Source: a virus
Taxonomy: Duplodnaviria > Heunggongvirae > Uroviricota > Caudoviricetes
Virus record (IMG/VR): IMGVR_UViG_3300013902_000267
Direction: 5' to 3' (one strand)
Length of the DNA stretch: 64,000 nucleotides
Both the position numbers and the translations under genes were made by a program. The notes under the pieces are model-generated. The model made no database searches, was not told the origin of the DNA, and saw nothing but the letters and a program-made list of their open reading frames with translations. Positions 33 to 62,193 of this stretch are shown piece by piece. Within the stretch, counting starts at the first letter, position 1. Every line of letters starts with the position of its first letter.

Positions 33-103
33 TGGGATATAATGTAATGGTAACATGGAATACTCTGAATGTTCTCTTACTGGTTCGAATCCGGTTATCC
101 CAA
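33..103 (+). tRNA. tRNA-Gln (anticodon CUG)
   Basis: Hand-folded cloverleaf: acceptor TGGGATA/TATCCCA, D stem ATGT/ACAT, anticodon stem GAATA/TGTTC with loop CTCTGAA (U33, CUG, A37), T arm ACTGG-TTCGAAT-CCGGT. Confidence 0.8.
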
Positions 104-222
104 CATATTCGTAATTTTTATTTTTTATTTTTTTTATTTTTAAAGGATTTATACATAAAGAGAAAAGGTTAATAAGATTTATTTCTTATTAACCTTTATT
201 ATTTTATTTCTTAAAATAAATA

Positions 223-846
223 TTAATCTTCATCATCCCAATAATCATAATATTCATTTGGATCATAATTTAATTCTTTATCTTCCTTAAAATTATCAAT
301 CACCTTAGAATTTTCAACAAATTCTTTTACTTTTTCTATAATATCTGCATCGTTAATCATTATTTCTTGAGTGCCATCTGTTAACATTAAACCATCAATA
401 TTTATTTTATCGATTTTACATTCAGTTTCATCTGGATCATCAGGTTGATCATAATCATGTGAACGCATACCTGGCGTATAATCAACCCAACAATCAATGT
501 CTGCATTAAATGCTAAACTTACGCCATAATCTTCCATTGAACGTGTTAATATTGTTGCTGTTTCATTCTTTGGATCAACATCTGGTATAATATTACACAT
601 TAAACAATCGTCATCTTGATCATATTGCTCTATATATCCATTATCATTAAGAAGATCCATAATTAATGAATTAATTAATTCTTGTGGAAGTGATTCCATA
701 TCAGAAAGATCAATATCTCCATTTTCATCATAATACTTTGGATCAATATTAGATGATGTTATTATACCTTCATTAAGTGATTTCTTAAGTGCTGAAGCAA
801 TACCATTTACTAATGATTCATATAATGCTTTATTTTGTTTCTTCAT
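223..846 (-). CDS. acidic hypothetical protein with shared N-terminal leader motif (LYES..KK.LNE)
   Basis: Track ORF of 207 aa, very D/E-rich. Its N-terminal ~28 aa resemble those of the sigma factor (59148-60137) and the lysozyme (62683-63897). Confidence 0.6.
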   Translation of the reverse strand: MKKQNKALYESLVNGIASALKKSLNEGIITSSNIDPKYYDENGDIDLSDMESLPQELINSLIMDLLNDNGYIEQYDQDDDCLMCNIIPDVDPKNETATILTRSMEDYGVSLAFNADIDCWVDYTPGMRSHDYDQPDDPDETECKIDKINIDGLMLTDGTQEIMINDADIIEKVKEFVENSKVIDNFKEDKELNYDPNEYYDYWDDED

Positions 847-942
847 AATTTCTATTAAATGCTAAATTATTTTTTATATTTATCATTTTTAAAACTATTT
901 AAAATAATTAATCTATAATAATTAAAATAAAAGGTTTGTTTT

Positions 943-1518
943 ATGAGTACACGTTGTAATTTACAAATACAAGATAATATAGAAGGAGAACATATATTAT
1001 ATCGACACTGTGATGGCATGCCAGATTCTGCAGGTAATGAAATAAAGAATTTCCTTAATGACTATGTAAAGAATACTAATACAACATATAATTATGAAGA
1101 AATTTCTAAAGGTATTATAGAACAGTTAGGATTTGAAGACGAAGGTAAAGTAGCAAAAGATATAAACTATTTTTATGAAATTGTTGTGCATCCAAATACA
1201 ATATTCTATACATGTTGGCATGTACCTGTATTTGGCAATTATGATATTGATAGTTTGGAGGATTATCCTGATTGTGAAGAACTAGAATGTGAGGAATTCA
1301 ATAAGTGTAATATACGAAAAGAAACTATTAATAAATCAACAGATGATATTGTTGATTCTAAAGAACTATTAAAATATGTAGATAGAAGAAATAAATTTCT
1401 TGATGAACTTTTAGATGAAGTTGAATTAAACGGTGGTATATCAAGAGATAAAATTATGAATATGTTAAAAGTAACATATGATCAGGGGTATAATTATAAT
1501 AGAGTAGATAATATTTAA
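943..1518 (+). CDS. hypothetical protein
   Basis: Track ORF of 191 aa; long open frame in a stop-rich AT background. Confidence 0.55.
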   Translation: MSTRCNLQIQDNIEGEHILYRHCDGMPDSAGNEIKNFLNDYVKNTNTTYNYEEISKGIIEQLGFEDEGKVAKDINYFYEIVVHPNTIFYTCWHVPVFGNYDIDSLEDYPDCEELECEEFNKCNIRKETINKSTDDIVDSKELLKYVDRRNKFLDELLDEVELNGGISRDKIMNMLKVTYDQGYNYNRVDNI

Positions 1519-1530
1519 TTTATAATTGTT

Positions 1531-1710
1531 ATGAAAAAATATTTAGAGATTCATTTGAAATATGAATTACCAGAAGATTATGATATTGATATTATAAATG
1601 ATGGTATTGATAATAAAGAAACATGGTCTTATATATTAGATTTAATGACAGATAATGAAAATAGAGAAAGTAAGGATACATGTAAATATACAACAGTTAA
1701 GATATACTAA
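1531..1710 (+). CDS. small hypothetical protein (59 aa)
   Basis: ATG..TAA frame read by hand (MKKYLEIHLKYELPEDYD...). It fills the gap between neighbouring genes and is below the track cutoff. Confidence 0.35.
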   Translation: MKKYLEIHLKYELPEDYDIDIINDGIDNKETWSYILDLMTDNENRESKDTCKYTTVKIY

Positions 1711-1712
1711 AT

Positions 1713-2396
1713 ATGAAACATTACGATTCAATAGATAATATAAAATATAATACTGAATTAGTAGGAGAACAAGTATGGGCATTCAATAAATTAGATGGTC
1801 AGAATTTTTGTGCTAAATATTCTGTAAAGAAAAAGGAATTTACAAATTTTGGTTCAAGAAAATGTATGGTAGATGAGACATCAGAACAATTTGGTGATGC
1901 TGTACGTTATTTTAAATCACATAATTATTCATCTATATTAAGTAATATAGTTGAAAAACATAGAGTAAAGAAAGATATATTTTGTGGTGTTGATGAAATT
2001 ACATTTTTCTTCGAATGGTATGGAGAACATAGTTTTGCAGGATTTCATTCTGAAGAAGATAAAGATAATATGCATCTTGCATTAATTGATGTGTTCATCA
2101 AAAAGAAGGGATATATTGAACCAAAGATATATATGGATCTATTTAGAGATTGTGGAATAGAATTGCCGCAATTAGTTTATACGGGACCATTATCAAATGA
2201 TTTTATTAAAGATATTCAAGAAAATGACTGGACTGAACCAAATTGTAAATTTCCTTATGTAAAGGAAGGTGTTGTAATAAGGAGATCTACTATTTTAAAA
2301 GGACAACGAATGCCTAAAGTAAAAGTTAAAACAAAATGGTGGTTAACTGAATTACATAAAAGATATACAGAAGAAGAATGTAAATTATTAGAGTAA
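1713..2396 (+). CDS. ATP-dependent RNA ligase-like nucleotidyltransferase
   Basis: Ligase motifs in order: NKLDGQN (KxDG), FFFEWYGEHS, KEGVVIRR, PKVKVKTKWW. Confidence 0.65.
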   Translation: MKHYDSIDNIKYNTELVGEQVWAFNKLDGQNFCAKYSVKKKEFTNFGSRKCMVDETSEQFGDAVRYFKSHNYSSILSNIVEKHRVKKDIFCGVDEITFFFEWYGEHSFAGFHSEEDKDNMHLALIDVFIKKKGYIEPKIYMDLFRDCGIELPQLVYTGPLSNDFIKDIQENDWTEPNCKFPYVKEGVVIRRSTILKGQRMPKVKVKTKWWLTELHKRYTEEECKLLE

Positions 2397-2398
2397 TT

Positions 2399-2851
2399 AT
2401 GACAACAGGTGAATTAGACGAAATTGTAAAAGATATTATTAATATTTTTGGTAAACATATAAAGCTTGCAAGTTTATCAGAAAAATCATATGCAACAGGA
2501 CATGAAAATTATTATGATATAGTGTTTGAGAATACTACATCATTTACTTCACGAATGTTCGGTTATCAATATAGAAAGTTCCTTAATAATCTTGCAAGTT
2601 TAACTAATGGTGAAACAAGAAAAACAAATTCATATAAAGGATTTGTATATTATTGGTTTCCTGGATTTATTTACAAGAAAAATAATTTAAGAATTGAATT
2701 TGGAAGGAAAGGTTGGAATAGACATAGTGGTGATGATTCAACTACATGTTTTTATATGACGACTAATAACAAATATATTATTGAAGAAATTGTTAATAAT
2801 ATATTAAGAGATAGAGATATACGTATTTTAAAGAAGAATGATTATGAATAA
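2399..2851 (+). CDS. hypothetical protein
   Basis: Track ORF of 150 aa, translationally coupled to its neighbours. Confidence 0.5.
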   Translation: MTTGELDEIVKDIINIFGKHIKLASLSEKSYATGHENYYDIVFENTTSFTSRMFGYQYRKFLNNLASLTNGETRKTNSYKGFVYYWFPGFIYKKNNLRIEFGRKGWNRHSGDDSTTCFYMTTNNKYIIEEIVNNILRDRDIRILKKNDYE

Positions 2852-3491
2852 TAAACCAACATTAGTTGTTCCAAAAGGCAGACTATATAAAGGAATTAAA
2901 CATATGTTTAATTTATGTAATATTGATATGCCTGATGAGAATACTAGACAATATTATTTCCCTGATTGGAGTGATGATTGTGCATTATTTATAGCAAAAC
3001 CTAAAGCAATACCAGAATTAATTGCAAGTAAATTCTGTGAATTCAGTATGTGCGGATATGATATTATAAAGAATAGTGAATATGAAAATGATATAGAGCT
3101 CATTAAACACACAGGACTAAATAGAGTAAAAGTATGTTTAGCTTCACGATATAATATTGATGAATTGTGTCATATGAATAAACCAGTTATTTGTGCCACA
3201 GAATTTGATGTGTTAGCAAATCATTATTTTACAAAATTAGGAATTCCACATTATATATTAAATACAGCAGGTTCAACAGAAGGATATATTGATATTGGTG
3301 CAGATTGTATTATTGATGTTGTAGAAACAGGGAAAACACTTAAAGAAAATAATATTAATATATTAGATACACTGATTGATACTGATACATGTATATTTGA
3401 ACATGCATCATTAATGGATGCAATGTTACCATCAAATATACAAATAATTTATGATCAATGGATTAATAAGACATGGGAAACGAGAATGTAA
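2838..3491 (+). CDS. hisG: ATP phosphoribosyltransferase (HisG short form)-like
   Basis: N-terminal LVVPKGRL and C-terminal IDIGADCIIDVVETGKTLKENNI match HisG signature regions; length 217 aa. Confidence 0.6.
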   Translation: MIMNNKPTLVVPKGRLYKGIKHMFNLCNIDMPDENTRQYYFPDWSDDCALFIAKPKAIPELIASKFCEFSMCGYDIIKNSEYENDIELIKHTGLNRVKVCLASRYNIDELCHMNKPVICATEFDVLANHYFTKLGIPHYILNTAGSTEGYIDIGADCIIDVVETGKTLKENNINILDTLIDTDTCIFEHASLMDAMLPSNIQIIYDQWINKTWETRM

Positions 3492-3934
3492 AATATATAG
3501 TAGAATTTGATGGTAATGATGGCACAGGAAAAACTTATACGATAAAAGTATTATCAAAAGTTTTTTCTAACTGTATTTTTATAGATAGAGGATTATTCAG
3601 TAAAGCAACATTGCTATCAGACGAAAATGATGAAATGTATAAGTATATTGATGATAATATTGATATGAATAGAATTTATATTATATTGGATGATTATCCA
3701 GAACATTGTCAAATGCTTATAAAAAGAAGAGGAGATTCTATTGAAGAGAAATATCATACAATAGAAGATTTAGAGTATTATCGTAAACAATTTACAAACT
3801 TATATGGTTATTGTTGTAAAAAGAATTATGATAATGTTTATTTAGTTACACGATTATTACCAGATCATGTTCAGGTAATGATTGATATTATTAAGAAATT
3901 TACTAATTTTAATAAGGAAAATAATAATGAGTAA
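3473..3934 (+). CDS. P-loop nucleotide kinase (dNMP/thymidylate kinase-like)
   Basis: VEFDGNDGTGKTY resembles the ExxDGxGKsT P-loop of dTMP kinase-type enzymes. Confidence 0.5.
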   Translation: MGNENVKYIVEFDGNDGTGKTYTIKVLSKVFSNCIFIDRGLFSKATLLSDENDEMYKYIDDNIDMNRIYIILDDYPEHCQMLIKRRGDSIEEKYHTIEDLEYYRKQFTNLYGYCCKKNYDNVYLVTRLLPDHVQVMIDIIKKFTNFNKENNNE

Positions 3935-4577
3935 AATAATTATTGGTACCAGTAATCCAGGTAAGATTAGAGAAATTGCATCTATTCTTTCACCATTAGG
4001 ATATGAGATTGAACCGCATGCATTGGATGTTGATGAAACAGGAAAGACTATTAAAGATAATGCTATTATAAAAGCAAAAGCATATAGTAATGTATTTCCA
4101 GATACTTATGTTATTGCAGAAGATAGTGGATTAGTCGTTCCTAAATTGAATAATCTTCCTGGTCCGTATTCAGCAAGATTTCATGAAATTACAATAGATG
4201 ATAATTTGAATGTTATAAATGTTCCACATGAAGAATTTACTACGGATAAATCTGAACATGATAAACTTAATAATGAGAAGTTGTTGAAGTATATTAAAGA
4301 TATTCCGTTTGATGAGCGTGCAGCATATTTTGAAGTATGTTTTGTCATTGCAAAGAATGGAATTATTCAAGAAACATTTAGTGGTTATTCATATGGTTAT
4401 ATAGCAGATGAATTACGTGGAACAAATGGATTTGGTTATGATCCATTGTTTATTGGTGAGAATACATTTGGTAAGACATATGCAGAACTAGATTCTGCAA
4501 GAAAGAATTTAAAGAGTCACAGAAAGCAAGCATTGAAACAATTGGGCCTTTGGGTTTCACAGAATATAGAGAATTAA
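3927..4577 (+). CDS. rdgB: dITP/XTP pyrophosphatase (RdgB/HAM1 family)
   Basis: IIIGTSNPGKIREI, EDSGLVVPKLNNLPGPYSAR and GFGYDPLF motifs. Start placed at the internal ATG (MSKIIIG) of track ORF 3882-4577. Confidence 0.75.
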   Translation: MSKIIIGTSNPGKIREIASILSPLGYEIEPHALDVDETGKTIKDNAIIKAKAYSNVFPDTYVIAEDSGLVVPKLNNLPGPYSARFHEITIDDNLNVINVPHEEFTTDKSEHDKLNNEKLLKYIKDIPFDERAAYFEVCFVIAKNGIIQETFSGYSYGYIADELRGTNGFGYDPLFIGENTFGKTYAELDSARKNLKSHRKQALKQLGLWVSQNIEN

Positions 4578-4583
4578 TAATAT

Positions 4584-5075
4584 ATGAAGAAATTTATTTT
4601 TCCAGGTTCATTTGATCCTTTTACAAATGGGCATAAAGCAATAGTAGATCAGACATATAAATTGTGTGATGAATTTATTATAGCATTAGCGACAAACTTA
4701 AAGAAAGGAGAAGGACTTATTAAACGTCCTGAGCGTATTAAGTTAATTAAAGAGATTTTTAAAGATTATCCGAATGTAAAGGTAATTGATATGACAGATA
4801 CCTTGATTTCTGATTATTGTAAAAAGAATGGAGTTTCTTATATTGTTAGAGGTATCAGAAATTCGGAAGACTTTACATATGAAAAATCATTGGCAGCTAC
4901 TAACCATTATTTGGCAGGTGTAGAAACAATGTTGGTAATGGGTTTTTGCGAACCATATAATATTGATATTTCATCTACATTCGTTAGAGAATTGGTACAT
5001 TATAAATTACCTATTGGTGAGTTTGTTCCACCAGTTGTTGAACAATATATTAAAGATAATAATTTAACATGGTAA
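4584..5075 (+). CDS. coaD: phosphopantetheine adenylyltransferase (CoaD-like cytidylyltransferase fold)
   Basis: FPGSFDPFTNGH, VRGIRNSEDFTYE and ISSTFVRELV align with PPAT motifs; length 163 aa. Confidence 0.7.
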   Translation: MKKFIFPGSFDPFTNGHKAIVDQTYKLCDEFIIALATNLKKGEGLIKRPERIKLIKEIFKDYPNVKVIDMTDTLISDYCKKNGVSYIVRGIRNSEDFTYEKSLAATNHYLAGVETMLVMGFCEPYNIDISSTFVRELVHYKLPIGEFVPPVVEQYIKDNNLTW

Positions 5076-5938
5076 ATAAGATTCAAGAAGAAGATTTAAA
5101 AGCAGTTGAGTATTGTAAAACTGTATTATATCCTAAATGGAATATCAAAGATTTGTATTCTATAGATTTTGATACATTTAGAAAAATGCCGTTGGTTGTA
5201 GAAGGTGAAAGTAAAGAGATACGTGCATTGGATGATGATTATTGTATCATTTATTTTAAACCTACAATTTATTCATTTACATATAATAGAACTGGTATTG
5301 TAGAAGGAAGTAATATTCCACGTGTTCATGTAAGTAAAGTATTGTGTGAGTTACTTAAAGAAAATGGTATTAAACATGCATATCTAGATTATGGTGATGA
5401 ATTTGTATTAGCACGCATAATTAAAGATACACCTAATATTGAAGTTGTTGTAAAAGCAAATCATACAGGTACAAGTAAACATAGATATTTTGGTATGGGT
5501 AAATCACATGTAAGAATGTCACATCCATATTATTCGGGAATGAAAATTAAAGACATGGAACCATATCCAGCACCTATTGTAAGATTTGATTGGCGAAATC
5601 CATTTTGGGAACCAAATACACATAAGATGTTAGCTGATGAAGTTATGTGCGATGATCAAGCAGATTATTATATTGATGTTAAGAAAGCAAAGAAAACTGC
5701 AGCACTAACATTCAGTGTATTAAGTGATTTTCTTGCAAGTAAAGATATTGTTATTTATGATTTGTGTTTGTTTATATCAGAAGATGGTGAAACAGTATAT
5801 GGAGAAATTTCACCAGATTGTGGAAGATATAGACATTATGATTTAGGAAGTCTTGATAAGGATGTATGGCGTGCAGGAGGTTCATCAGATCAGGTATTGG
5901 AGAAGTGGAATTTACTGTATAAAATGATTACACAATAA
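5069..5938 (+). CDS. SAICAR synthetase (PurC)-like ATP-grasp-type ligase
   Basis: EGESKEIR near the N-terminus and GEISPDCGRYRH resemble the PurC GKxK and (D/E)xxPDxxR motifs; weak, made by eye. Confidence 0.45.
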   Translation: MVNKIQEEDLKAVEYCKTVLYPKWNIKDLYSIDFDTFRKMPLVVEGESKEIRALDDDYCIIYFKPTIYSFTYNRTGIVEGSNIPRVHVSKVLCELLKENGIKHAYLDYGDEFVLARIIKDTPNIEVVVKANHTGTSKHRYFGMGKSHVRMSHPYYSGMKIKDMEPYPAPIVRFDWRNPFWEPNTHKMLADEVMCDDQADYYIDVKKAKKTAALTFSVLSDFLASKDIVIYDLCLFISEDGETVYGEISPDCGRYRHYDLGSLDKDVWRAGGSSDQVLEKWNLLYKMITQ

Positions 5939-5940
5939 TT

Positions 5941-6177
5941 ATGAGAAAATACGAATGTGAGATTGAAGATTATCATGGACATTTCTTTCACCATCGGTTT
6001 GAAGCAAACGATGATAATGAAGCGTTGGATAAAGCAAATGACCATGGTTATAGATATTATGCTAATGATGATACTTTATATTATGTAGAAGGAGATTATG
6101 TTGATTATAGTAATATAAGTACAGATCATTATAAAGAGAATATAAAGAAGTACCATCAAATATGGACTTCAATTTAA
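5941..6177 (+). CDS. hypothetical protein
   Basis: Track ORF of 78 aa. Confidence 0.5.
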   Translation: MRKYECEIEDYHGHFFHHRFEANDDNEALDKANDHGYRYYANDDTLYYVEGDYVDYSNISTDHYKENIKKYHQIWTSI

Positions 6178-6189
6178 ATAGTATATTTA

Positions 6190-6225
6190 AAAGTCACTAA
6201 AATAAAAACTTTAGTGACTTTTTCT
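6190..6225 (+). terminator. rho-independent terminator
   Basis: AAAGTCACTAAA / TTTAGTGACTTT 12-bp hairpin followed by a T run. Confidence 0.6.
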
Positions 6226-6263
6226 ATTATTATATATGAATTATAATTTAAACTATAAGATAA

Positions 6264-6647
6264 ATGAATTTAATTACAAATATAAAGAAATCATACAAAC
6301 ATATACCATATACATTTAAACATTGGAAGATGGTATTGAAATTAGAGAAGAAATATATAGGCTATTATAAATATCCTTTTCATGATTTAGATAAATTGTT
6401 CATGTATATATTCTTCCCTTATTTAGGAACAAAGATAATTCAGAAAATTCATACAAAGTTTGCTAATCATCATTTACGTAAATATAAGAAACATATGAAT
6501 TTTGATGAAGCTATTCTTGATTGGGAATCTGCAAGGTTTACAAAACCTGATAAACCATTGGATGCGTGGGATACATATCAAAAATATTTTACGGAATTTT
6601 CAAATGAACTTTTACCTATATTTGAAAAATTTAACTTGAAACATTAA
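6264..6647 (+). CDS. hypothetical protein
   Basis: Track ORF of 127 aa. Confidence 0.5.
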   Translation: MNLITNIKKSYKHIPYTFKHWKMVLKLEKKYIGYYKYPFHDLDKLFMYIFFPYLGTKIIQKIHTKFANHHLRKYKKHMNFDEAILDWESARFTKPDKPLDAWDTYQKYFTEFSNELLPIFEKFNLKH

Positions 6648-6869
6648 AGACTTTATTTATATACGTTTATATAAAATACATAATGATTTTGTTTTAGAAG
6701 AACATTTATAAAAACTGTTTTAATAATTAGTGTAAAAGTGAGCACACAGAAAAAGAGAATTATGATAATTTCTGTAGAGCATGGATCAATACCAGCATTA
6801 TATAATGTACAGTTTATAGCAACGAATGTTCGAAATTTAAATTAACTATATGTCTAACATTCTTAATTT

Positions 6870-6939
6870 TTATTATTGGTAATAAGTGGCAAAACATGCT
6901 AGGAATAGTAAGTTATCGGTTCGAACCCGATATAATAAA
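6870..6939 (+). other. tRNA-like fragment (T arm plus acceptor only)
   Basis: ATCGG-TTCGAAC-CCGAT T arm and TTATTAT/ATAATAA acceptor pairing are present, but no acceptable D or anticodon arm could be folded. Confidence 0.25.
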
Positions 6940-7154
6940 GATAGAAAATGGATGATAGTTAATGATGCTAGATATAACGCTTATTATAGAAGTATTATAG
7001 GATTTGATTGAAGTGTGGATGTTTATTATACCTGTTCTATTTTTTAATAAAACAAATGTCCCTATAGATTGAAACATGGATTGAGATGAATATAATATGA
7101 TGTAATTTTAAGTTTGTTATATTTAGCATTAATTTTTTAATAAGAATTATTAAT

Positions 7155-7598
7155 ATGTATATGTTACGATTACAAGATTTACCAGATGGTGCAATAGTTC
7201 AATTATACTATAGGTCTTACGAAGAAGGATATGGACGTAGTAAACCAATGTTTAGAACATATATTATATCATTTAATGATAATACTATAATTTTTTCAAA
7301 TGTAGAATCTAAATACGAAGGTAATTTTAGTTTTTATTTAAATCAAACAGCACAATATATACATTTTGATCCAACAGACATAAATAATATTAATAATTTT
7401 GGATTTGATAAAAACTATATTATTGTATATGGAATTTATACATTTGATGATTCTAATAATAAAGTAAAAATGCCATATTCAATGAAAGGCAAGTATAAAA
7501 TGAACATATACAATACAAAATGTATATATCAAGAAGATATATCAAAAATTGCAGGGGATGAAATACAAGCTTACAATAGACGATACAAATATTATTAA
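7155..7598 (+). CDS. hypothetical protein
   Basis: Track ORF of 147 aa. Confidence 0.45.
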   Translation: MYMLRLQDLPDGAIVQLYYRSYEEGYGRSKPMFRTYIISFNDNTIIFSNVESKYEGNFSFYLNQTAQYIHFDPTDINNINNFGFDKNYIIVYGIYTFDDSNNKVKMPYSMKGKYKMNIYNTKCIYQEDISKIAGDEIQAYNRRYKYY

Positions 7599-8109
7599 TA
7601 TAAACATATTACCCGGTGCAAAATTTGAATGTACAATATATAAAGGCAACGGACATTATGAAAGTTCATATGGAACTATTATGAAATGCAATGATAGATT
7701 AGTATTAATGTTGTGTGGACTTTTGTTTTTTGGATATGACTATCATTCTTGGAATAGTATTCATACTTATAATAAAAAACATTATCTGTATTATAATTAT
7801 TATAAGAATGATAACGATAGTATGAAAATAAAAGGTATTGTATGGTATTTAGATTTTGAAAAATATCCAGATAATTTTGGATTGTCTCCAAAATTATTTG
7901 TTGTTACTGATATATGGTTTAATAATATACATATATATAAAAGTAATTATATGTTGAAGAAATACAAACCAAGTTTAAAACCAAATTATATACATGAAGC
8001 AAATGAAAATTGTAAATGTTTTAAATATTGCGGTGGTAGTGTATATTCATCGGAAAAGTTAGAGGAATATGCAGAAGTAATACCTAATAAAAATTATAAT
8101 TATGAATAA
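7549..8109 (+). CDS. hypothetical protein
   Basis: Track ORF of 186 aa; the true start may be a downstream ATG. Confidence 0.45.
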   Translation: MQGMKYKLTIDDTNIININILPGAKFECTIYKGNGHYESSYGTIMKCNDRLVLMLCGLLFFGYDYHSWNSIHTYNKKHYLYYNYYKNDNDSMKIKGIVWYLDFEKYPDNFGLSPKLFVVTDIWFNNIHIYKSNYMLKKYKPSLKPNYIHEANENCKCFKYCGGSVYSSEKLEEYAEVIPNKNYNYE

Positions 8110-9580
8110 TATTAAAGAAAATAATTTTTTCATTCCTAGAAAAATTGCTGTAGGATTTGTAAAAAGAGCAAATACATATTCAGGAAAGTTATCTTATATT
8201 ACTTATTATGATAATACTAATAAATTACGTAAGGACGTATCTTGGAATGGTTGGAGAGATAAAAATATAGAACCTGTATATACGGATAATATTCCAACAA
8301 CAGGTTTTATTATTAATAAACGTGCAGGAGGCGAAAAATGGGGATGGAACCAAAGAGCAACATATGCGCGTATATATGATCCAAGAGGGTTTGAATTTGA
8401 GATAACTATAGATAATCTTCTTTGGATTCTGGAATATACTAATTCAGAAAACAAGGAATTAAAAGGACAATTTGTATATAGTTGGTATGGAACTGAACTT
8501 GTACTTATGCCTATTGTTTCATCTGATTATGAAGAATCTAAACGTTTATCTGAACAACAATATAATAAAACATCGTTTAAAGAACGCGATTTAATTCCTG
8601 GAACACTTTATAAAATGAAAGGTAAGGAATTAAATGAATTGGTATATATTGGTAAAGTAAAAGTATCTACTGAATTCAATATGTCTTATGTTAATAAATT
8701 AGCATTTGTACCTATACAGGATTCTTGGAAGTTATATTCACATTATGATAAAAATATCAACAGATCTGATTTCTTTATATTTAAAAGTGTTTCGTCTGTT
8801 ATAGCAGAAATGCAACAAAATTATTTTAGTGACGATATTGTAAAAGAATATCTACATAGATTTGATATGTGCGCGTATTCATATAATTTCTGGAATAATT
8901 TTGGTAATTTCATTGATAAATTTGTTTCTGACCATCCATGTATAATGAATGATTATAAAAAACCATATAAGATAGAATATAATAGATATAGCACAGAGAA
9001 GAATAATTATAATAATATTATTGATAAATTCGAATATAATGGTATAAAGTTAGATTCATTAAGAATTATTCCTGAATGGTTAATCCAAACAGACAGAGAA
9101 CACATATTTTATGAAAATACAAGTGTATTAAAATCAGTTATATCCGATGATGGTAAATCCGTATTGATAAAAGATCAATATCCTACTATAGAAAAGATTA
9201 ATACATTTAATAGGATTGTATATAAACGAATGTATGATTTCATGAATATTGATTTAAATACAAATACATTTAATAAAATATGTGATCCCGGATTGTGGGA
9301 TGAATATAGAGGTCATCATTCTTGCGAAGTATCAAATATTATATATAAGCATCCATCAGAAACTACAGATGTTCAGAAAGCAAGAGAAATTAATACTCAG
9401 GTTTCATTAAATGATAACAGAACATTCTTATATTATATAACGAAGGATAATTATATATCTATATCATTACAGGAAATGATACGGAATCATCGTTATATGA
9501 AATTCGGTTTCTCGAATGGTATAGATGAGAATAAATGGGTAACATTAGATGTAATATTGTTACCAAAAAAGATTAAGTAA
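8102..9580 (+). CDS. hypothetical protein (492 aa)
   Basis: Track ORF; long open frame. Confidence 0.55.
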   Translation: MNNIKENNFFIPRKIAVGFVKRANTYSGKLSYITYYDNTNKLRKDVSWNGWRDKNIEPVYTDNIPTTGFIINKRAGGEKWGWNQRATYARIYDPRGFEFEITIDNLLWILEYTNSENKELKGQFVYSWYGTELVLMPIVSSDYEESKRLSEQQYNKTSFKERDLIPGTLYKMKGKELNELVYIGKVKVSTEFNMSYVNKLAFVPIQDSWKLYSHYDKNINRSDFFIFKSVSSVIAEMQQNYFSDDIVKEYLHRFDMCAYSYNFWNNFGNFIDKFVSDHPCIMNDYKKPYKIEYNRYSTEKNNYNNIIDKFEYNGIKLDSLRIIPEWLIQTDREHIFYENTSVLKSVISDDGKSVLIKDQYPTIEKINTFNRIVYKRMYDFMNIDLNTNTFNKICDPGLWDEYRGHHSCEVSNIIYKHPSETTDVQKAREINTQVSLNDNRTFLYYITKDNYISISLQEMIRNHRYMKFGFSNGIDENKWVTLDVILLPKKIK

Positions 9581-9657
9581 TTTTTTTATTTCAAAATAAT
9601 TATGTATCTTTGTATTGTTAATAAACAAAAAGTATAAACAATTAAAAATATATAATT

Positions 9658-10149
9658 ATGGCAACAAATAAAAAGAATACAGTTAAGAAGTATATGCTTT
9701 CCCAAAATTTACCTTTTGGTAATTTAAAAGCAGGCATGATTTTCTCTTATGATACTATTACAAAAACTGCGGTATTTCCAAATGGACAAGAGATCTCACC
9801 ATTTGATGTAACAGATAAGAATTTCGTTAAGTCTGTCGCAGATGTAAAGTTTAATGTAGGTGATTGTGTCATTTATCATACACGATTGTATAAGATTACT
9901 GATATTAACTATGTAACAGGTCGTTGTAAGCTTTTAGAGTTTTACGCAAATAAAGAGGTTGATTTTGTAAGTCATTCTGTATTGACAGCAGCACAAGTTT
10001 ATTGGTTTGTTAATTCGTCTGGAACTGTTTCATCATCATATATTGGCAAACAACCAGATGCAGACTTATGGAGAGCAAAAACAAAGAACATGTTTAATAC
10101 CAAGGAGGAGTGTCAGAAGTATAAGAATATTGTTCTTAAAAGTAAATAA
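9658..10149 (+). CDS. hypothetical protein
   Basis: Track ORF of 163 aa. Confidence 0.55.
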   Translation: MATNKKNTVKKYMLSQNLPFGNLKAGMIFSYDTITKTAVFPNGQEISPFDVTDKNFVKSVADVKFNVGDCVIYHTRLYKITDINYVTGRCKLLEFYANKEVDFVSHSVLTAAQVYWFVNSSGTVSSSYIGKQPDADLWRAKTKNMFNTKEECQKYKNIVLKSK

Positions 10150-10198
10150 AGAATATTTTTCAAATTTAAAATTTTAAATTAATATTTTATTTAACTCT

Positions 10199-10236
10199 TA
10201 AAGAGATTTGTAGTGATTACAAGTCTCTTTTTTCTT
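10199..10236 (+). terminator. rho-independent terminator
   Basis: AAGAGATTTGTA / TACAAGTCTCTT hairpin followed by a T run. Confidence 0.5.
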
Positions 10237-10269
10237 TTTAATAAATATATAAAATATAAAAGAAGTATT

Positions 10270-10863
10270 ATGCCAACAATGATGCCATTAATGGATAAAG
10301 ATACCGTAAGATATATAACATAGAATATTACACCAGAAGAAACTAAATATGTAGCTGATATAAAATCTACTATTGATGATACAAAGTGTGAACCAGAGAA
10401 ATGTGATGATGTTATATATCTTACTAAGATTATCGCTTTTTATACTAAATTTACAAATCTTGCAAATACAACACCTAATAATCAATATAAGATGCATATT
10501 CAAGATTTTATGTGGAGATTACAGCAATATAAGGAAGATATATTTGAAGTTGTTCAATCTATCATAGGAGTTTTAAATGGTTCCGATATTACAAAGATTG
10601 AATTACCTATAAGTGATAATCCATTAGAGATTATAAATGAATTAAAACAATGTGTACAAAATTGGTTTACACTTCATACAGATGATATTGAATATGAAGG
10701 CGCTAGATCATTAACTAGTTCATTCCTTTCTGTAATTCATAAGTTTGTTTACCTTTTTAGATTAGATAAATGCTCGACTGCTGATTATGGTCAGGATTAG
10801 AAATTACCAAATCCTGATGCAGGATTATGTGGAGTAAACGGAGCATATGCAGTAAATTTTTAA
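10270..10863 (+). CDS. late-module hypothetical protein (2 in-frame TAG)
   Basis: ATG upstream is in frame with track ORF 10492-10800. Only TAG interrupts the frame and it ends at TAA. Confidence 0.55.
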
Positions 10864-10874
10864 TATGATATAAT

Positions 10875-11828
10875 ATGAATCCTATAAATCAACCATCATC
10901 TAGAAATTACAATATCAATGGTAGTACAAGAAATAATGGGTTCTTATATAAAATTATGCCTTTATCATTTAATTTACAATAGAGAGGAAATGATTTTAAA
11001 GTTAAAAAATACAATAAGTGTAAATTTAATATCGGCGATAATGTAAGAGGATTGTGTTTGGAAGATAAGAAAGAACATTCAGGACGAATTACTAATATCT
11101 TATACAGTACAAATACAGAAGTTCCTTATTTAGTTTATATCATTGATAATAAGACAAGATAGAAATTATCATTAAACTTTAGTTCGCTAGAATTTAATAA
11201 TTCTAAAATTGATGAGTCATATGGGTTTGATGTTGCCATTAAACTATATGAAACATTAAATAAAGATAAATATAATAAATTAAAACTTTAGAATAGAATG
11301 GTAAATTCAATAAAAGTTTTACTTGAAGAATATTTTAATAATACAGAACAAATGGATATGTTGTTAAATGATTATTAGAAACAACAGAAAAAAGCAAGTA
11401 AAGCATATGATTCACGTCAAGAGTTTTTAAAATCAATATTAGGTAAAGTAACATATAACAAATATCAAAATAAAGGTATGTTTGCTCCTATTCCTTTATC
11501 TGCATTGCATTTAACATTCGAAGATTTTTATTATTTGTTTCCAGAGAATAATATTAAGATGAGACCAATGGATAATGAAGCAGGTGTAGAGAAAGTAAAG
11601 AAACTTATTGCACGTATTAATAAGGAATATCCTAATAACGGTATTAGATTGTTAGATAATGGTGTTTCTTATACATTAAGTTCAAATCTTGTATTTAAGA
11701 GATTAGATAATATAATTGATTTTTTATAGATAATTCAGAAAAATGTTTTGAGGATTTCATCTGATAAAACAAATCCAACAGTTAATTGGAAGGCGATGAT
11801 AAAGAAATTCAGAAATTATCTACGATAA
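10875..11828 (+). CDS. late-module hypothetical protein (about 6 in-frame TAG)
   Basis: ATG 10875 is in frame with track ORF 11478-11729 (603 nt apart). All intervening stops are TAG and the frame ends at TAA 11826-11828. Confidence 0.65.
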
Positions 11829-11861
11829 TCAAATAAGTAAAATAAATTAATTAAAATAATA

Positions 11862-12365
11862 ATGATGATAACTACAAACATAAGTAACATTCCAGACGCA
11901 TGGGATGGTTATTTTGAACAATAGGTTAATAAGTTCACGCCTTCTGTTGAAGTTCCTAAGCCTTGGAGACATCCGGTTGGACCTGAACCTATGATGAAAC
12001 CTTGCAAGCATCATAAGACATAGTTTATTATAAAACATAAACCTGCTACATTACCAAATGGACCAGAACATGGATGTAACGTATGTGATCCATATCATCC
12101 AAATTTGTATGATCATATGAATATGCCTTGTTTTAATCAACATAAACCATATGGTATCGCTACTAATAGATTAATGAGTCCATTTGAAGATGATGATAGA
12201 CCTGATTGGCATGAATTCCATGCTAAGAATCGTAAACCTATGATGTTTGAAGAAGTTATAGATGAAAATGGTTGTTCACATGGTCCTCATGGAACAATTA
12301 ATGTTAGACCAGTTGAACCTGCTGATGATGAAGCAGATGAGATTGAAGATGAAGTAACAGTTTAA
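11862..12365 (+). CDS. His/Cys-containing protein with acidic tail (2 in-frame TAG)
   Basis: ATG 11862 is in frame with track ORF 12105-12365; CKHHK, GCNVCDPYHP and GCSHGPHG motifs. Confidence 0.65.
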
Positions 12366-12398
12366 AATGAAAATTAATTAATGATAGAAATATAAATT

Positions 12399-13166
12399 AT
12401 GCAAACATCAAGTAAAGTTTCATACGATAATTGGAGTGATTGGAATTTAGGAAATTAGATAATGAATATAAGACCTGTTGGTACATATTGCTTCTGTGAA
12501 CATCATCATTGTCACCATCATCATCCTTGTGATTGTGTAGATTGTGAATTCTCAGAATCATATATTAAACCAGAATCTTGTTGTCATCATCATCCGCATC
12601 CACCAGTACCATGTCCACCACATCATTGTGATTGTCATGATCCACATTTATTTCCAATTGATCAAGATAATGATGGATTTGTAGAAAGTGATATGATTCA
12701 TAAACATCCAGAACCATATATTCCAGAACCATTACCAGGAGAAATTGGAGATAAAGAAGATGATACAACAAATAGAATGGAAGTAGGTGACGAAGTTGAT
12801 GATATTGATGATTCAACAAATTATTATGGTTCAAATTTAGTTGTAAGTATTCCTAAAGAAATTCAACCAGTAGAAACATCAGATGAAATTGATTCTATTT
12901 TAGATGAAGATACACAAGATGATATGGTAACTACTGATGAAGATGGTTATCATACATTAAGTGATGAAGTTCCAGCAGAAGAAGATAATTGGGAAACATC
13001 AAAAATGATTGATACTAATACATCTAAAATTATTGAAGAAACACCAGTTCCTGAATAGGAATTAAAGGAAGTTGAAACTATTCCATCTGTAGAATCAGTA
13101 GAAGAGAAACCCACACGTGGACGTAGAAGAGTTAATCGTGGAGGAAGACGTAAAAAAGAAGAATAA
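12399..13166 (+). CDS. His/Cys-rich putative metal-binding protein (2 in-frame TAG)
   Basis: ATG 12399 is in frame with track ORF 12462-13058. CFCEHHHCHHHHPCDCVDC...CCHHHPHPPVPCPPHHCDCHDPH; reads through TAG 13056 to TAA 13164-13166. Confidence 0.65.
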
Positions 13167-13188
13167 TTTTTATTCTATATATAATAGA

Positions 13189-13226
13189 AAAGAGACTTAG
13201 AACAAAAATACTAAGTCTCTTTTTAT
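13189..13226. terminator. bidirectional terminator between convergent genes
   Basis: AAAGAGACTTAG / CTAAGTCTCTTT hairpin flanked by A and T runs. Confidence 0.6.
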
Positions 13227-13262
13227 TTTTTATAAACATTCACATTTAATTTTACTATAAAA

Positions 13263-13889
13263 TTAAAGCATACATTCATCCCACCAGTCAGCGCGGAAAG
13301 TCATATCACAAGACATCAAATCTGTACTGTCATAATTAAGTGTAGGACCAGGTACACCTGTTGTAGGGAAAATGTAATAGAATACCCATTGCCAATATGG
13401 ATTACCAGCACGATCTTGCATAGTAATAGTCATTGATGGCGCCACGTAATCTTTCTTAAGGCCTTCACGACCTGTAAGAGGATCATAAATAAGGTCAACC
13501 CATTCACGAAGGAACTTATATGTGTAGTTCTCAGGTGAACCGTTATCATATGAAAGGTTAAGGTTAAAGTGTAATGTCAAGTCGACATTAGTTCTATCTG
13601 GTTTTGCACCAGCGAATGAACGTTGTGCAAATTTATACTTTTGCTCTGTTGCGTTAGCACCAAATGAAGTAGAAATCTGACCAACACTTTGTACACCTTC
13701 AAGAATAATATTCAAACGTTCATCATCTGTTGTATCAACCATACCTTGAGGACAACTTAATTGAACAGTAAACAAGTTCAAATATATAGGTTCCCATAAT
13801 GAGGTAGATACACGGCTATTTCTAAAATGTGATAATCCTAACAAACCTGGAGATTTCTTAGGTAAAGTAGGTCCATTTGTTACTGCCAT
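13263..13889 (-). CDS. tail tube protein (T4 gp19-like)
   Basis: IYLNLFTVQL near the N-terminus and a MTFRADWWDE C-terminus recall T4 gp19 PNLFQVEI ... TLALDYWE. TAG-free and visibly higher GC than its neighbours. Confidence 0.6.
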   Translation of the reverse strand: MAVTNGPTLPKKSPGLLGLSHFRNSRVSTSLWEPIYLNLFTVQLSCPQGMVDTTDDERLNIILEGVQSVGQISTSFGANATEQKYKFAQRSFAGAKPDRTNVDLTLHFNLNLSYDNGSPENYTYKFLREWVDLIYDPLTGREGLKKDYVAPSMTITMQDRAGNPYWQWVFYYIFPTTGVPGPTLNYDSTDLMSCDMTFRADWWDECML

Positions 13890-14042
13890 ATTATTATTAA
13901 AGTATATTTTATTTTATTTATCTGTGAAAAATAGGTAGATTAAATGTAGACAAAAATATTTTTTTATAGTATAAATTAAGAATTTAAAAAAAATAGAGAT
14001 AAATAATTAAGTTCAAAAAATAAATTTTAAATAAAGAAGAAA

Positions 14043-14216
14043 ATGAAGAAGATTTTATTTGTACTTGCTGCTGTTGTAACAATGAGTTTCGCTTCTTGTG
14101 GTAACAAGACTACTACATGTGGAACAGCAAATGATTCAACTGCAACAGATACTACAGTTGTTGATTCTACAGCTACAGATTCAACTGCAGCTGATTCTAC
14201 AGTTTGTCCTATGTAA
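14043..14216 (+). CDS. small lipoprotein with DSTA repeats (57 aa)
   Basis: MKKILFVLAAVVTMSFASC signal peptide plus lipobox, then a repeated (T/A)DSTA(T/A) motif. Below the track cutoff. Confidence 0.55.
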   Translation: MKKILFVLAAVVTMSFASCGNKTTTCGTANDSTATDTTVVDSTATDSTAADSTVCPM

Positions 14217-14389
14217 TTCATAAGACAAACTTTATTTTAGAGAAGATTATTGTGTAATTAAAATATAACCTAATATAAGGTTTATATTAAACTAATTTTA
14301 GAGATATACTAAATATATTCATTTATATTTGGTATATCTTTTTTTATTTAATAAATATTTAAAATTTATTTAACTGAATTATATAATAT

Positions 14390-15286
14390 ATGGCAACATG
14401 GAATCAAGCAGTTCAATAGATGGGTAAGTTTTATCAATAGAATATACATACATATCAAGGAGGTAAATCAGGACATGCGACAGGTGCTAGACGTTCTTAT
14501 TCATGTCCTTTAGTTGGACACAGTGTAGGAGATGATTGTTCAGGATTTACTTCTGCGTGTTTATAGTTATTTGGAGCATTTCCAGGCTCATATATTGTTT
14601 CATCTAGTGGTTTTGCATCAACATCTGGTGCAACAGCCGCATATTTAAGAAAAGCTGGATTTTCACCGTTAAGATATATTAGTTACTCATCTTTATAGCC
14701 ATATGATATTGTTGCAAGAAATGGACATGTTGAAGTATTTTGTGGTATGAAGGGAAGTTCACCAATGTCATACGCATGGGGAAATATTCATGATGGCATA
14801 AATGGACATGTTGGTATGCCATGTTGGTTTTCTAAACAGTCTTATTCTATTGTATGGAGAAATTCTGGTGTAAGTATAGATACACCATTAGATTTTTCTT
14901 CAGTGTCTGGCGGTTCATTACAACAATAGATGAATTCTGGATATGGTACAGGTGGAACATTAAATGGGTAGACAGGTTCATAGTTTAATTATACATCAAA
15001 TACATATCCTGTTCATGATGAATATGAAACTATTTCATCTGGTAATGGTTCAAAATCTGTATTTGAAATTGTAGGTGAAAATACATTACGTATGGCATAT
15101 ACAAATTCATCATATATACAACAATTAGATTCATCTAATTATTAGTTAAAAAATACTCGTATATATTCAACTAATGATGCATCTATAATATTAGATGAAT
15201 TATCAATACCATTAGATCCATTTGATACGAGTGTTAATACATTAGATTCAAGTGTTATTGATAATTCAGTTAAAACAAATAATTAA
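14390..15286 (+). CDS. NlpC/P60-type cell-wall peptidase (about 8 in-frame TAG)
   Basis: ATG 14390 is in frame with track ORF 14747-14929. DCSGFTSACL (Cys nucleophile) and NGHVEVF (His); ends TAA 15284-15286. Confidence 0.7.
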
Positions 15287-15292
15287 TAATAT

Positions 15293-16333
15293 ATGGCTGG
15301 CAAGAAATTACTTAATGGTGTTTATATAACAAAGAAAATAATGGAAGCTTTTAATCTTAAAGATTATCAGGCTGCTGGATTTGCTGGTTGTTTTATGGAA
15401 GAATCTGGTTGTGATCCCGGTGCATATAATGCCGCTGAAAAATCTGGAAGATTTAAAGGTTCATCAGCGAACGGTGCAGGTTATGGTGCAGGTCTTGCAT
15501 AGTGGTCTAATGCATGGAAACGGTAGATATAGAGATAGTTTAATAATTCAAGGCCTATAGAAAATTGGACATTAGATTAGCAAATAGCTATTGTTACTAA
15601 AGGCTGTTCATAGTCTTTTGTAAATTTATTAAGAAAATGTACATCAGTAGGTTAGTCTACAGATATTGTTTTAAGAGGATATGAAAATGGTTCTGCAGGT
15701 AAAGGTACTAAATTACGTTCATAGCAATCAATGAAAGCATATACGTGGTGTAAGACATCATATATGGCAGATGGTAGTAGACGTACGTTTAGTGATGGAT
15801 ATATTGGTGCATTAACATGTAGAACATCATGGGCTAATGCAGTTTTAAGTAAAATGGGATCAGTTAATCTTGCAGATTTATCCGGATTAGGAACAGAAGT
15901 AGGTGGAGGATTAGGTGATGATGGCTCTTTTGGTTCTACTGGTGGAGGAGGAACTGGAGATTCAAACGCATATCCTGTTCATGATGAATATGAAACATTT
16001 ACTGGACAAGGTGGAAATATATTTGCAAATGCAAAAGATAATGCATTTCAATTAGCTGCTGATGCATCAAAATCTAAATTTTCATCTAAAGATTCTGAAG
16101 CATCTAAGCATACACGTATATATTCTACAAATGATTCTTGTATTGTTTTAGATGAATTAAGTATACCATATGATCCAAATGATCCAACTATTGAATATGC
16201 AAATCAAAATGTAAAAGCGGAAGATGTTAAGAAAGATACATCTACTAATGCAAAAGATAATACTAAAGACACATCTACAAATAAAAGTACAAATAAATCT
16301 AATACTACAAAAAAGACAACTAAATCTAAATAA
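15293..16333 (+). CDS. lysozyme-like (phage tail lysozyme-type) peptidoglycan hydrolase (about 8 in-frame TAG)
   Basis: Track ORFs 15293-15502 and 15731-16333 are co-framed (438 nt apart) and joined only by TAGs. AAGFAGCFMEESGCDPGAYN ... GYGAGLA-TAG-WS motif. Confidence 0.7.
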
Positions 16334-16335
16334 TT

Positions 16336-19300: not shown

Positions 19301-19425
19301 TTCCAGGAACTATGATAACATTTATGAACTATATGACAAAAAATACATAGAGAACAACAGAATTCTCTGTAAGTAGTGAAATAGACGAAAACACATTACA
19401 AAAAAATAGTAATAATGATAAATGA
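16336..19425 (+). CDS. large tail/baseplate-associated protein with C-terminal M15-type peptidase (about 19 in-frame TAG)
   Basis: Track ORFs 16612-17025, 17380-17697, 17827-18195 and 18856-19350 all share the frame of ATG 16336. N/D/S/G-rich low-complexity region; SSHLYGEAIDI...HYHIGTD zinc-peptidase motif; ends TGA 19423-19425. Confidence 0.7.
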
Positions 19426-62187: not shown

Positions 62188-62193
62188 ATATAG

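Follow-up and report, generated by a model that had tools for sequence, protein, structure and literature searches.

The adenosine-deaminase inhibitors pentostatin, coformycin and adechlorin are made with relatives of histidine- and purine-pathway enzymes. For pentostatin, these are the HisG homologue PenA, which is reported to use dATP, the HisI, HisE and HisA enzymes of primary metabolism, the SAICAR-synthetase homologue PenC and a short-chain dehydrogenase; the adechlorin equivalents are AdeC (HisG homologue), AdeA (SAICAR-synthetase homologue) and AdeK, a recruited copy of HisA, whereas in coformycin biosynthesis the SAICAR-synthetase homologue is CofB and the short-chain dehydrogenase PenB/CofA completes the product (PMC11611020, PMC12648386, PMC13055916). 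In this study, we analyzed a cassette of five plus-strand genes (positions 2838-5938) of a Prevotella Lak megaphage, carried on a stretch of 64,000 nucleotides (IMG/VR record IMGVR_UViG_3300013902_000267; the whole stretch is hereafter called the window). The cassette encodes, in order, HisG, a small kinase-like P-loop protein (B), the non-canonical purine nucleoside triphosphate (NTP) pyrophosphatase RdgB/Ham1 (Ham1), a phosphopantetheine adenylyltransferase (PPAT, CoaD) and a protein with the fold of the SAICAR synthetase PurC (E). HisG, B, Ham1, and E recur together outside Lak phages, and we classify this module as a histidine-branch pathway with a PurC-fold enzyme, which follows a known gene logic but differs in its partners and carriers. 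The reading that we favor, with a probability of about 0.4, is that E diverts phosphoribulosyl-formimino-aminoimidazole carboxamide ribonucleotide (PRFAR) to a coformycin-type nucleotide, that B phosphorylates the product and that Ham1 clears inosine triphosphate and its deoxy form ((d)ITP), countering adenine-nucleotide deaminase immunity.

Scans yielded 45 loci in GTDB genomes and 16 loci in IMG/VR contigs (loci and protein clusters are cited by L and P numbers). The carriers among candidate phyla radiation (CPR) bacteria are Saccharibacteria, Falkowbacteria, Uhrbacteria, Vogelbacteria, Peribacteria, and Parcubacteria; other cellular carriers are a Woesearchaeote, Myxococcales/Polyangiaceae, Bdellovibrionota/Oligoflexia, Planctomycetia, Acidobacteriota, Bradyrhizobium, Devosia, and a Nostocales cyanobacterium. 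Viral carriers besides Lak include other huge phages and contigs labeled as giant-virus metagenome-assembled genomes (GVMAGs). Co-occurrence was counted by tblastn in 19 non-Lak, non-duplicate loci in which E shared 45% identity or more with the Lak protein. Ham1 was found within 1.3 kb of E in all 19 loci and HisG within 2 kb in 17, B accompanied E in 15, a HisA-HisI-HisE fusion was nearby in nine and PurA in four, and PPAT was near E in none (0/19).

Furthermore, the same proteins were repeatedly fused. In P0046 and some eight further clusters, B is joined to the N terminus of E; in L055 and L005, it is joined to Ham1. HisG, B, and E are combined in giant-virus proteins of ~800 aa, in which B lies between the other two, and in L063. 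The combinations E+Ham1, E+Ham1+B, E+Ham1+HisG, and HisG+E+Ham1 occur in P0124, P0127, P0128, and P0129, and Ham1-E fusions also in P0132 and P0135. The histidine enzymes take part as well: HisA-HisI-HisE-HisG-E proteins were found in P0162 and P0203, a further fusion of HisA/HisI/HisE to E and HisG in P0222, and a single 1228-aa protein of a 481-kb phage (L065) unites B, E, HisA, HisI, HisE, and HisG. The HisA-HisI-HisE fusions were called by Pfam and NCBIfam (HisIE, 192 bits versus a cutoff of 187), and the TIM barrel of the bacterial fusions is of the HisA type (TIGR00007, 153 bits, versus 38 for HisF). Because synteny is kept and fusions recur outside Lak, HisG, B, Ham1, and E very probably form one pathway, and comparative data could hardly make a stronger case that they act together with HisE, HisI, and HisA.

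Within the Lak phages, each of the 15 Lak-A/B/C genomes in the phage collection carried the cassette with its gene order unchanged, and the synteny in relatives on which the preliminary description of this DNA depended was thus found. That description, made from the letters and open reading frames (ORFs) alone, had suggested a joint function of all five genes, for example in making an unusual purine nucleotide; this idea holds up for four of them, whereas PPAT, confined to Lak, drops out. Its alternative, a collection of auxiliary metabolic genes, would mean that five independent genes share an early operon, with a feedback-resistant HisG serving histidine synthesis, PurC purines, PPAT coenzyme A (CoA), RdgB pool cleaning and a deoxynucleoside monophosphate (dNMP) kinase the recycling of host DNA. 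Every protein does come from a housekeeping superfamily, many genes of this kind are known from huge phages, and PPAT behaves in just this way and may still be explained so. However, the four genes stay together in different phyla and virus realms and have been fused again and again, E lacks the Lys, Glu, and Asp of PurC and fails the purC equivalog model, and CPR carriers have the first four histidine steps beside E, with later his genes not seen in the annotated loci. As an account of the whole cassette, the explanation is highly improbable, and for the four core genes it is essentially excluded.

E matched the broad family Pfam SAICAR_synt only (39.6 bits, cutoff 20) and did not reach the cutoff of the purC equivalog TIGR00081 (26.7 bits versus 189.9). 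In its AlphaFold2 (AF2) model (mean predicted local distance difference test score, pLDDT, 85.5), the fold is that of PurC: each of the 38 best PDB matches is a PurC or PAICS structure, and the closest, 2z02, was found with a Foldseek E-value of 2.5e-18 and a template-modeling (TM) score of 0.67-0.79. An alignment with five solved PurCs was used to compare residues. The Lys and Glu of the PurC motif "DfKlE" are Cys233 and Phe235 in E ("DLCLF"), and the Asp of "aDE" is Gly245 ("fGE"); all 22 family members compared carry these replacements, and every E subfamily has equivalent ones. The replaced residues are those that we take to hold Mg-ATP and to serve phosphoryl transfer in the Escherichia coli enzyme. 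E shares with canonical PurC the overall fold, the glycine-rich loop and motifs that align with GS..KR, D.CR, and LDKD, which presumably bind the aminoimidazole ribotide, but it has invariant motifs of its own (HSGTSKHRY and VRFDWRNP), and its genomic partners are histidine-pathway enzymes rather than pur genes. Across 22 diverse members from phages and six bacterial phyla, 87 columns are invariant. These features suggest that E still binds a ribotide resembling 5-aminoimidazole-4-carboxamide ribonucleotide (AICAR) but no longer carries out ATP-dependent aspartate ligation, and aspartate is an unlikely substrate.

Judged by its sequence, E is not a SAICAR synthetase but belongs to a separate, very conserved family. 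The earlier PurC-like assignment is therefore borne out at the level of fold and broad family and not at that of the equivalog, and the accompanying view of this gene as a single step taken from the host purine pathway was mistaken. A protein search with E returned 480 proteins, and the best 120 of the 480 share 52-100% of their residues with E even though their sources are as varied as huge phages and assemblies of Myxococcales, Armatimonadetes, Blastocatellia, Peribacteria, and Clostridia. When all 1.84 billion cluster representatives were scanned with HMMER, only 360 matched the E family (E-value ≤ 0.001). Canonical PurCs are nearly universal and would give far more clusters than this, so the E family is discrete. 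Its members are annotated in databases as "SAICAR synthase" or "hypothetical." The co-occurrence of a "PurC" with PurA was considered as a sign of de novo purine synthesis and rejected, since E lacks the ligase residues and no further pur genes lie alongside.

HisG is a short-form ATP phosphoribosyltransferase (TIGR00070, 106.6 bits versus a cutoff of 75.75; Pfam HisG, E-value 2.1e-24) whose translation carries the loop motif for phosphoribosyl pyrophosphate (PRPP), IIDVVETGKTL. The regulatory domain HisG_C gave no Pfam match in the 217-aa protein, and no HisZ-like gene was found in the cassette or in the annotated module loci. Compared with the front end of histidine biosynthesis (HisG-HisE-HisI-HisA), the enzyme families and the order of the first four steps are identical, and HisG and HisIE of the module pass the NCBIfam equivalog cutoffs; in contrast, the PurC-fold E stands in the place of HisF, and HisF, HisH, HisB, HisC, HisD, and PurH were not seen in the annotated module loci. 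The module is carried by CPR bacteria and viruses in which histidine synthesis is not expected. Genes for HisA, HisI, and HisE are all missing from Lak genomes, so Lak must take these steps from Prevotella. Likewise, HisA, HisI, and HisE were not found within 6 kb of the giant-virus fusion genes. On the GVMAG contigs L056, L057, L059-L062, and L064, HisG, the P-loop domain and E form single proteins of ~780-800 aa, which have an extra N-terminal region of ~100-140 residues without family assignment.

The module and the pentostatin, coformycin, and adechlorin pathways have in common a dedicated HisG homologue that channels ATP or dATP and PRPP into HisE/HisI/HisA chemistry and a SAICAR-synthetase-fold protein that takes over a histidine-pathway intermediate. 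Lak depends on primary HisI, HisE, and HisA of its host, as does the pentostatin cluster, whereas CPR and phage modules carry their own HisA, as the adechlorin cluster does with AdeK. The likeness of E to PenC and CofB that is drawn here is one of fold class and gene logic. Unlike the pentostatin and coformycin clusters, the module has no conserved short-chain dehydrogenase partner in the annotated neighborhoods; its constant partners are the small kinase-like P-loop protein and a Ham1 predicted to be an active inosine triphosphatase (ITPase), often fused. The carriers also differ from those of the actinomycete clusters, the module being found in phages, giant viruses, CPR and DPANN organisms, and predatory bacteria. 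The statement that the cassette's enzymes form no known pathway together was accordingly wrong in part, as HisG and the PurC-like protein follow pentostatin/coformycin logic (PMC11611020, PMC12648386, PMC13055916).

According to the reading that we favor, HisG, which lacks the histidine-sensing domain, would carry out the committed step from ATP (or dATP) and PRPP to phosphoribosyl-ATP (PR-ATP), as expected from its family. HisE, HisI, and HisA would then convert PR-ATP to PRFAR, again by family function, with genetic linkage as their tie to the module; these enzymes would be those of the Prevotella host for Lak and module-encoded in CPR bacteria, some phages, and other carriers. That E takes PRFAR from HisF is suggested by its fusions and by its PurC fold, and, by analogy with CofB and PenC, E would close a 1,3-diazepine ring to give a coformycin-type nucleotide resembling inosine monophosphate (IMP). 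B would alter the phosphorylation of this product, and Ham1 would remove (d)ITP or the product triphosphate, so that both would be kept out of nucleic acids. In the phage, adenine nucleotides would thereby be protected from ATP/dATP/dAMP deaminase immunity (Cad1, RADAR, and Kongming). To our knowledge, CofB and PenC are the only PurC homologues that act on PRFAR. Reportedly (Ren et al., 2020), CofB cyclizes PRFAR to 8-ketocoformycin-5'-phosphate, ammonia, and 4-phosphoerythronate without a phosphorylated intermediate, and such chemistry would fit an enzyme without ligase residues. It is probable that E acts on PRFAR or a neighboring histidine-pathway intermediate; that its product is a diazepine, as the analogy would have it, is a tentative assignment that falls somewhat short of even odds.

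The two constant partners were examined in the same way. B alone had no match in Pfam or NCBIfam, and Pfam Thymidylate_kin always stayed under its cutoff. A profile built from 12 B homologues matched the thymidylate kinase 2pbr (E-value 3.7e-9), with the region that binds nucleoside monophosphate (NMP) deleted (~50 residues). B retains Walker A (DGNDGTGKT) as well as a DRG motif, and both are invariant among homologues. Foldseek matches of its AF2 model (pLDDT 74.9) are deoxynucleoside kinase, deoxyadenosine kinase, thymidylate kinase, and adenylate kinase, and the model gives B a nucleoside/NMP-kinase fold. The original description of B as dNMP-kinase-like holds at the level of fold, while the protein by itself falls into no named family. 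Ham1 passed the equivalog cutoff (TIGR00042, 157.5 bits versus 145.35; Pfam Ham1p_like, E-value 6.4e-48), and its translation retains the catalytic-site motifs SNPGK, AEDSGL, SARF, FGYDP, and SHR. In the inactive sensors of the KomB type, His replaces the catalytic Asp (bioRxiv 2024.12.20.629578). We rejected the possibility that Ham1 is an inactive sensor of the Kongming type, as the catalytic Asp is retained.

Several defense systems against which such a product could act are known. RADAR turns ATP and dATP into ITP and dITP (PMC9994260), ITP is also what Cad1, an effector of type III CRISPR, makes from ATP (PMC11645235), and the alarm signal of Kongming is dITP (bioRxiv 2024.12.20.629578). 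The Cad1 protein studied came from a Bacteroidales contig (PMC11645235), and Bacteroidales is the order of the host of Lak. In a 229-kb phage, a gene for endonuclease V lies between B-Ham1 and E. Endonuclease V is an inosine-repair nuclease, and its presence inside the module fits the deaminase reading thematically, as does the GMP-reductase-like gene found in L003. RNA-repair genes, which are typical counter-defense functions, lie near the module in three huge phages and likewise fit this reading. If the function holds, the module would resemble T5 Dmp, which acts against Kongming, and the reconstitution of NAD+ in that a small TAG-free metabolic gene set, maybe an early one, is directed against a nucleotide-targeting defense (bioRxiv 2024.12.20.629578). 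In contrast to these, the route proposed for Lak consists of inhibitor synthesis and (d)ITP clearance and not of precursor depletion or cofactor resynthesis. That the module serves Lak as an anti-deaminase counter-defense is nevertheless doubtful, if conceivable. The broadest version, in which huge phages, giant viruses, CPR/DPANN organisms, and predators would share a compact module, often fused into a single protein, that leads from ATP via PRFAR to an intracellular, ring-expanded, coformycin-like nucleotide acting as a transition-state inhibitor of deaminases, and in which Lak would use it to disarm Cad1, RADAR, or Kongming with the ITPase as backup against (d)ITP as signal or toxin, is unlikely when taken as a whole. 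The module as a bacterial defense system was also considered and was not supported, as there was no PADLOC match and the CPR contexts are of a housekeeping kind.

Much of the same gene content can be read as purine interconversion or salvage. ATP would then pass through HisG, HisE, HisI, and HisA to PRFAR, which E would split without HisF, yielding with ammonia AICAR and a fragment like imidazole glycerol phosphate, or, after ring re-closure, IMP. Adenine nucleotides would in this way reach AICAR/IMP independently of a deaminase, with B and Ham1 tuning the phosphorylation state of IMP/ITP-type nucleotides, and carriers that lack de novo purine synthesis, whether cellular or viral, could rebalance their purine pools. 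Such a role suits the range of carriers, most of which are CPR bacteria, viruses, predatory bacteria, or, in one case, a DPANN archaeon, and a bona fide PurA (TIGR00184, 443 bits versus 396) adjoins the module in 4 of the 19 loci and in L020 and L045. A GMP-reductase-like gene in L003, the ITP/XTPase activity assigned to Ham1, and the housekeeping neighbors in CPR loci point in the same direction, and the E-fused amidase of L045 or the glutamine amidotransferase of L041 could feed ammonia, as HisH does for HisF. However, PurH and the later his genes named above were not seen in the annotated module loci, PRPP and two pyrophosphates would be spent on what one deaminase achieves, and an AT-rich phage (26% GC) has no gain in destroying adenine nucleotides. 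In addition, no PurC-fold enzyme is known for such chemistry, and the E subfamily linked to a haloacid dehalogenase (HAD) phosphatase is found in biosynthetic-cluster-like loci with a cytochrome P450 and an aminotransferase. Salvage is the main rival explanation and, although unlikely, one to be taken seriously.

A number of observations weigh against the favored reading, in which E makes a coformycin-type nucleotide. A reductase equivalent to PenB/CofA was not conserved in the annotated module neighborhoods, in which only isolated reductase-like cases occur (a Sacchrp_dh/adh_short-like gene in L020 and the GMP-reductase-like gene in L003); because the reductase is not conserved, a true coformycin product with its 8-hydroxy group would lack its final enzyme. 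No actinomycete was found among the 45 GTDB loci or in the protein searches, including one seeded with the Nostocales homologue. The CPR modules lie amid housekeeping genes (PurA, CCA-adding enzyme, and M28 peptidase), which looks more like core nucleotide metabolism than inhibitor making, and B and Ham1 would work against each other on one shared product. The amidase fused to E in L045 and the glutamine amidotransferase beside E in L041 hint at ammonia-dependent, HisF-like chemistry, and one Peribacteria operon holds a second PurC-like gene with ligase residues. Finally, a deaminase defense in the host of Lak is assumed.

The operon in question (L045, 5185-13025, Candidatus Peribacteria) is a divergent set of seven genes that encode MazG/HisE-HisI, HisG, HisA, the second PurC-like protein, E joined to a formamidase-family domain, PurA, and a P-loop protein. 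Its second PurC-like protein retains the ligase Lys, Glu, and Asp, and the operon may represent an ancestral or alternative form of the module chemistry.

A second E subfamily, with 35-42% identity, was found in Bradyrhizobium (L033-L035, L037-L039, and L049), Nostocales (L041), Acidobacteriota (L031-L032), and an alphaproteobacterial metagenome-assembled genome (L042). A HAD phosphatase gene stands beside E in this subfamily, directly downstream in all loci but L042. The neighbors in Bradyrhizobium L038 are an aminotransferase, a cytochrome P450 and a gene resembling class-I aminoacyl-tRNA synthetases, and those in Nostocales L041 are S-adenosylhomocysteine-hydrolase-like, glutamine amidotransferase, and PhoD genes. 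These HAD-linked loci, two of which were annotated, look like uncharacterized biosynthetic gene clusters for nucleoside natural products. The phosphatase would be in keeping with a product made as a nucleotide and released, when needed, as a nucleoside, and the pattern suggests that the kinase-linked variant keeps its nucleotide in the cell and that the phosphatase-linked variant releases the nucleoside. In comparison with pentostatin and coformycin, the product of the kinase subfamily would probably be kept as a nucleotide, whereas the HAD-linked subfamily may release a nucleoside.

PPAT passed its equivalog cutoff (TIGR01510, 132.5 bits versus 103.3) and has the motifs GSFDPFTNGH and DISSTFVR; the earlier HisG, RdgB, and CoaD assignments were all sustained by formal family searches above such cutoffs. 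PPAT adjoins E in Lak only, and jumbo phages of Caulobacter, Brevundimonas, Campylobacter, and Microcystis have homologues without the module. PPAT is a Lak-specific insert or passenger in the operon, outside the conserved module. The production of N1-cyclic ADP-ribose from PR-ATP by HisG and PPAT was considered and rejected, PPAT being restricted to Lak and a standard CoaD. On a 453-kb phage contig (L067, 10754-12063), genes for CoaB (DFP) and CoaC (Flavoprotein) lie ~3 kb downstream of an E-Ham1-B module; they echo the PPAT of Lak, which may be a coincidence or a real link of the module to CoA-type cofactors.

These genes bear on another explanation, in which the product is a precursor of a modified nucleic acid, an RNA cap, or a dinucleotide cofactor. 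B would raise the product of E to the di- or triphosphate for incorporation, or the PPAT of Lak would adenylylate its 5'-phosphate to a dinucleoside pyrophosphate, and Ham1 would police the pool. In its favor, PPAT sits inside the Lak operon and is conserved like E (96-100% identical between Lak clades), CoaB and CoaC lie ~3 kb from the module of the 453-kb phage, and RNA-end enzymes are found nearby, namely, an RNA ligase in Lak, RtcB and Thg1 in L067, Tpt1 in L003, and a CCA-adding enzyme in L014 and L016. However, PPAT is in no non-Lak module and has the score of an ordinary CoaD, the RNA-repair neighbors vary by locus and are never fused to the module, and a role in DNA modification is at odds with CPR, myxobacterial, and giant-virus carriers. 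We regard this explanation as improbable.

No published report was found in which phages, giant viruses, or CPR bacteria are linked to the module or to chemistry of the coformycin type. Confirmation of the pathway would give a function to a very conserved family whose carriers range from megaphages and giant viruses to CPR bacteria, DPANN archaea, and predatory bacteria, and pentostatin/coformycin-type chemistry would reach beyond the antibiotic clusters of actinomycetes and fungi. If the product inhibits deaminases, we found no earlier report of a small-molecule inhibitor made by a virus against nucleotide-deaminase immunity. Even with a different product, the module would constitute a fourth fate of PRFAR and would account for the retention of HisG, HisE, HisI, and HisA in organisms unable to make histidine. 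"PurC" and "HisG" annotations in viral and CPR genomes should not be taken as evidence of purine or histidine biosynthesis. A direct test would need no more than four or five recombinant enzymes.

The layout of the cassette and its surroundings is given in Table 1. All five tightly packed plus-strand ORFs of the preliminary description were confirmed; the junctions between them are overlaps of 19, 8, and 7 nt and one 6-nt gap. In gene C, the ATG at 3927 gives the canonical RdgB N terminus MSKIIIGTSNPGK, and this is probably the start rather than the TTG at 3882. The HisG-like and PurC-like proteins of the window are 100% identical in amino acid sequence to those of Prevotella phage Lak-B7/B8 (~550 kb). 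PHROGs and PADLOC returned nothing useful for A, B, C, or E.

Table 1. Annotated features in and around the Lak cassette (window coordinates).
Feature	Position	Strand	Length	Basis or remark
tRNA-Gln(CTG)	33-104	+		
Rnl-type RNA ligase	1713-2396	+		Pfam PF09414 RNA_ligase, E-value 2.1e-8; phrog_548, E-value 2.9e-12
ORF overlapping HisG start	2399-2851	+	150 aa	Weak Cas6-like: Pfam Cas6_I-A, E-value 0.011; PADLOC Cas6, E-value 1.8e-4
Gene A, HisG, short-form ATP phosphoribosyltransferase	2838-3491	+	217 aa	TIGR00070, Pfam HisG
Gene B, truncated nucleoside/NMP-kinase-like P-loop protein	3473-3934	+	153 aa	Walker A, profile, fold
Gene C, RdgB/Ham1 non-canonical purine NTP pyrophosphatase	3927-4577 (listed start 3882)	+	216 aa from ATG 3927	TIGR00042
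Gene D, PPAT/CoaD	4584-5075	+	163 aa	TIGR01510
Gene E, PurC-fold protein ("VRFDWRNP" family)	5069-5938	+	289 aa	Pfam SAICAR_synt, AF2 model
ORF following E	5941-6177		78 aa	ORF
Terminator-like hairpin	6189-6222	+		13-bp stem, then T-rich tail; just 3' of 78-aa ORF
tRNA-Lys(TTT)	62193-62266	-		

The hairpin downstream of the 78-aa ORF probably closes the transcription unit of the cassette; three terminator-like sites were found in 800-7200, versus 0.6 expected. A sigma-70 promoter scan gave 60 sites versus 60.2 in shuffled sequence, with a model that does not cover Bacteroidota promoters. All five cassette genes end in TAA and none has an in-frame TAG, so the boundaries of the cassette are unaffected by the TAG recoding of Lak. 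The cassette is part of a TAG-free run of 13 consecutive plus-strand genes (931-10149), and the next eight plus-strand genes (10195-19425) contain 2-19 in-frame TAG codons each, with 19 in the gene at 16330-19425. This pattern fits a Lak-type reassignment in some genes only, possibly late ones, and the TAG-free block with the cassette would fit expression ahead of the code switch. TAG-rich genes become fragmented in standard ORF lists. No TAG-suppressor tRNA was found within the window, in which the two tRNA genes of Table 1 were detected.

Upstream of the cassette, the RNA ligase and the 150-aa ORF belong to one tightly packed block with it and stand beside the module in Lak loci only. The 150-aa ORF is 78% identical between Lak clades and may encode an RNA-processing protein. 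RNA-end repair genes are recurrent near the module, as seen with this RNA ligase in Lak, RtcB/Thg1 in L067, and Tpt1 in L003, and a CCA-adding enzyme lies beside it in two CPR loci (L014 and L016).

In the phage collection, the records H16-H23 and H39-H53 (Listeria LM 4-x, Staphylococcus SA 13xx Kay, Acinetobacter MD-2021a, and human fecal "Bacteriophage sp.") carry ordinary-looking bacterial his operons, which suggests bacterial contamination or mis-binning. The GC content of the window ranges from 22 to 32%. GC skew and coding strand flip from plus to minus at ~20 kb and back at ~62 kb.

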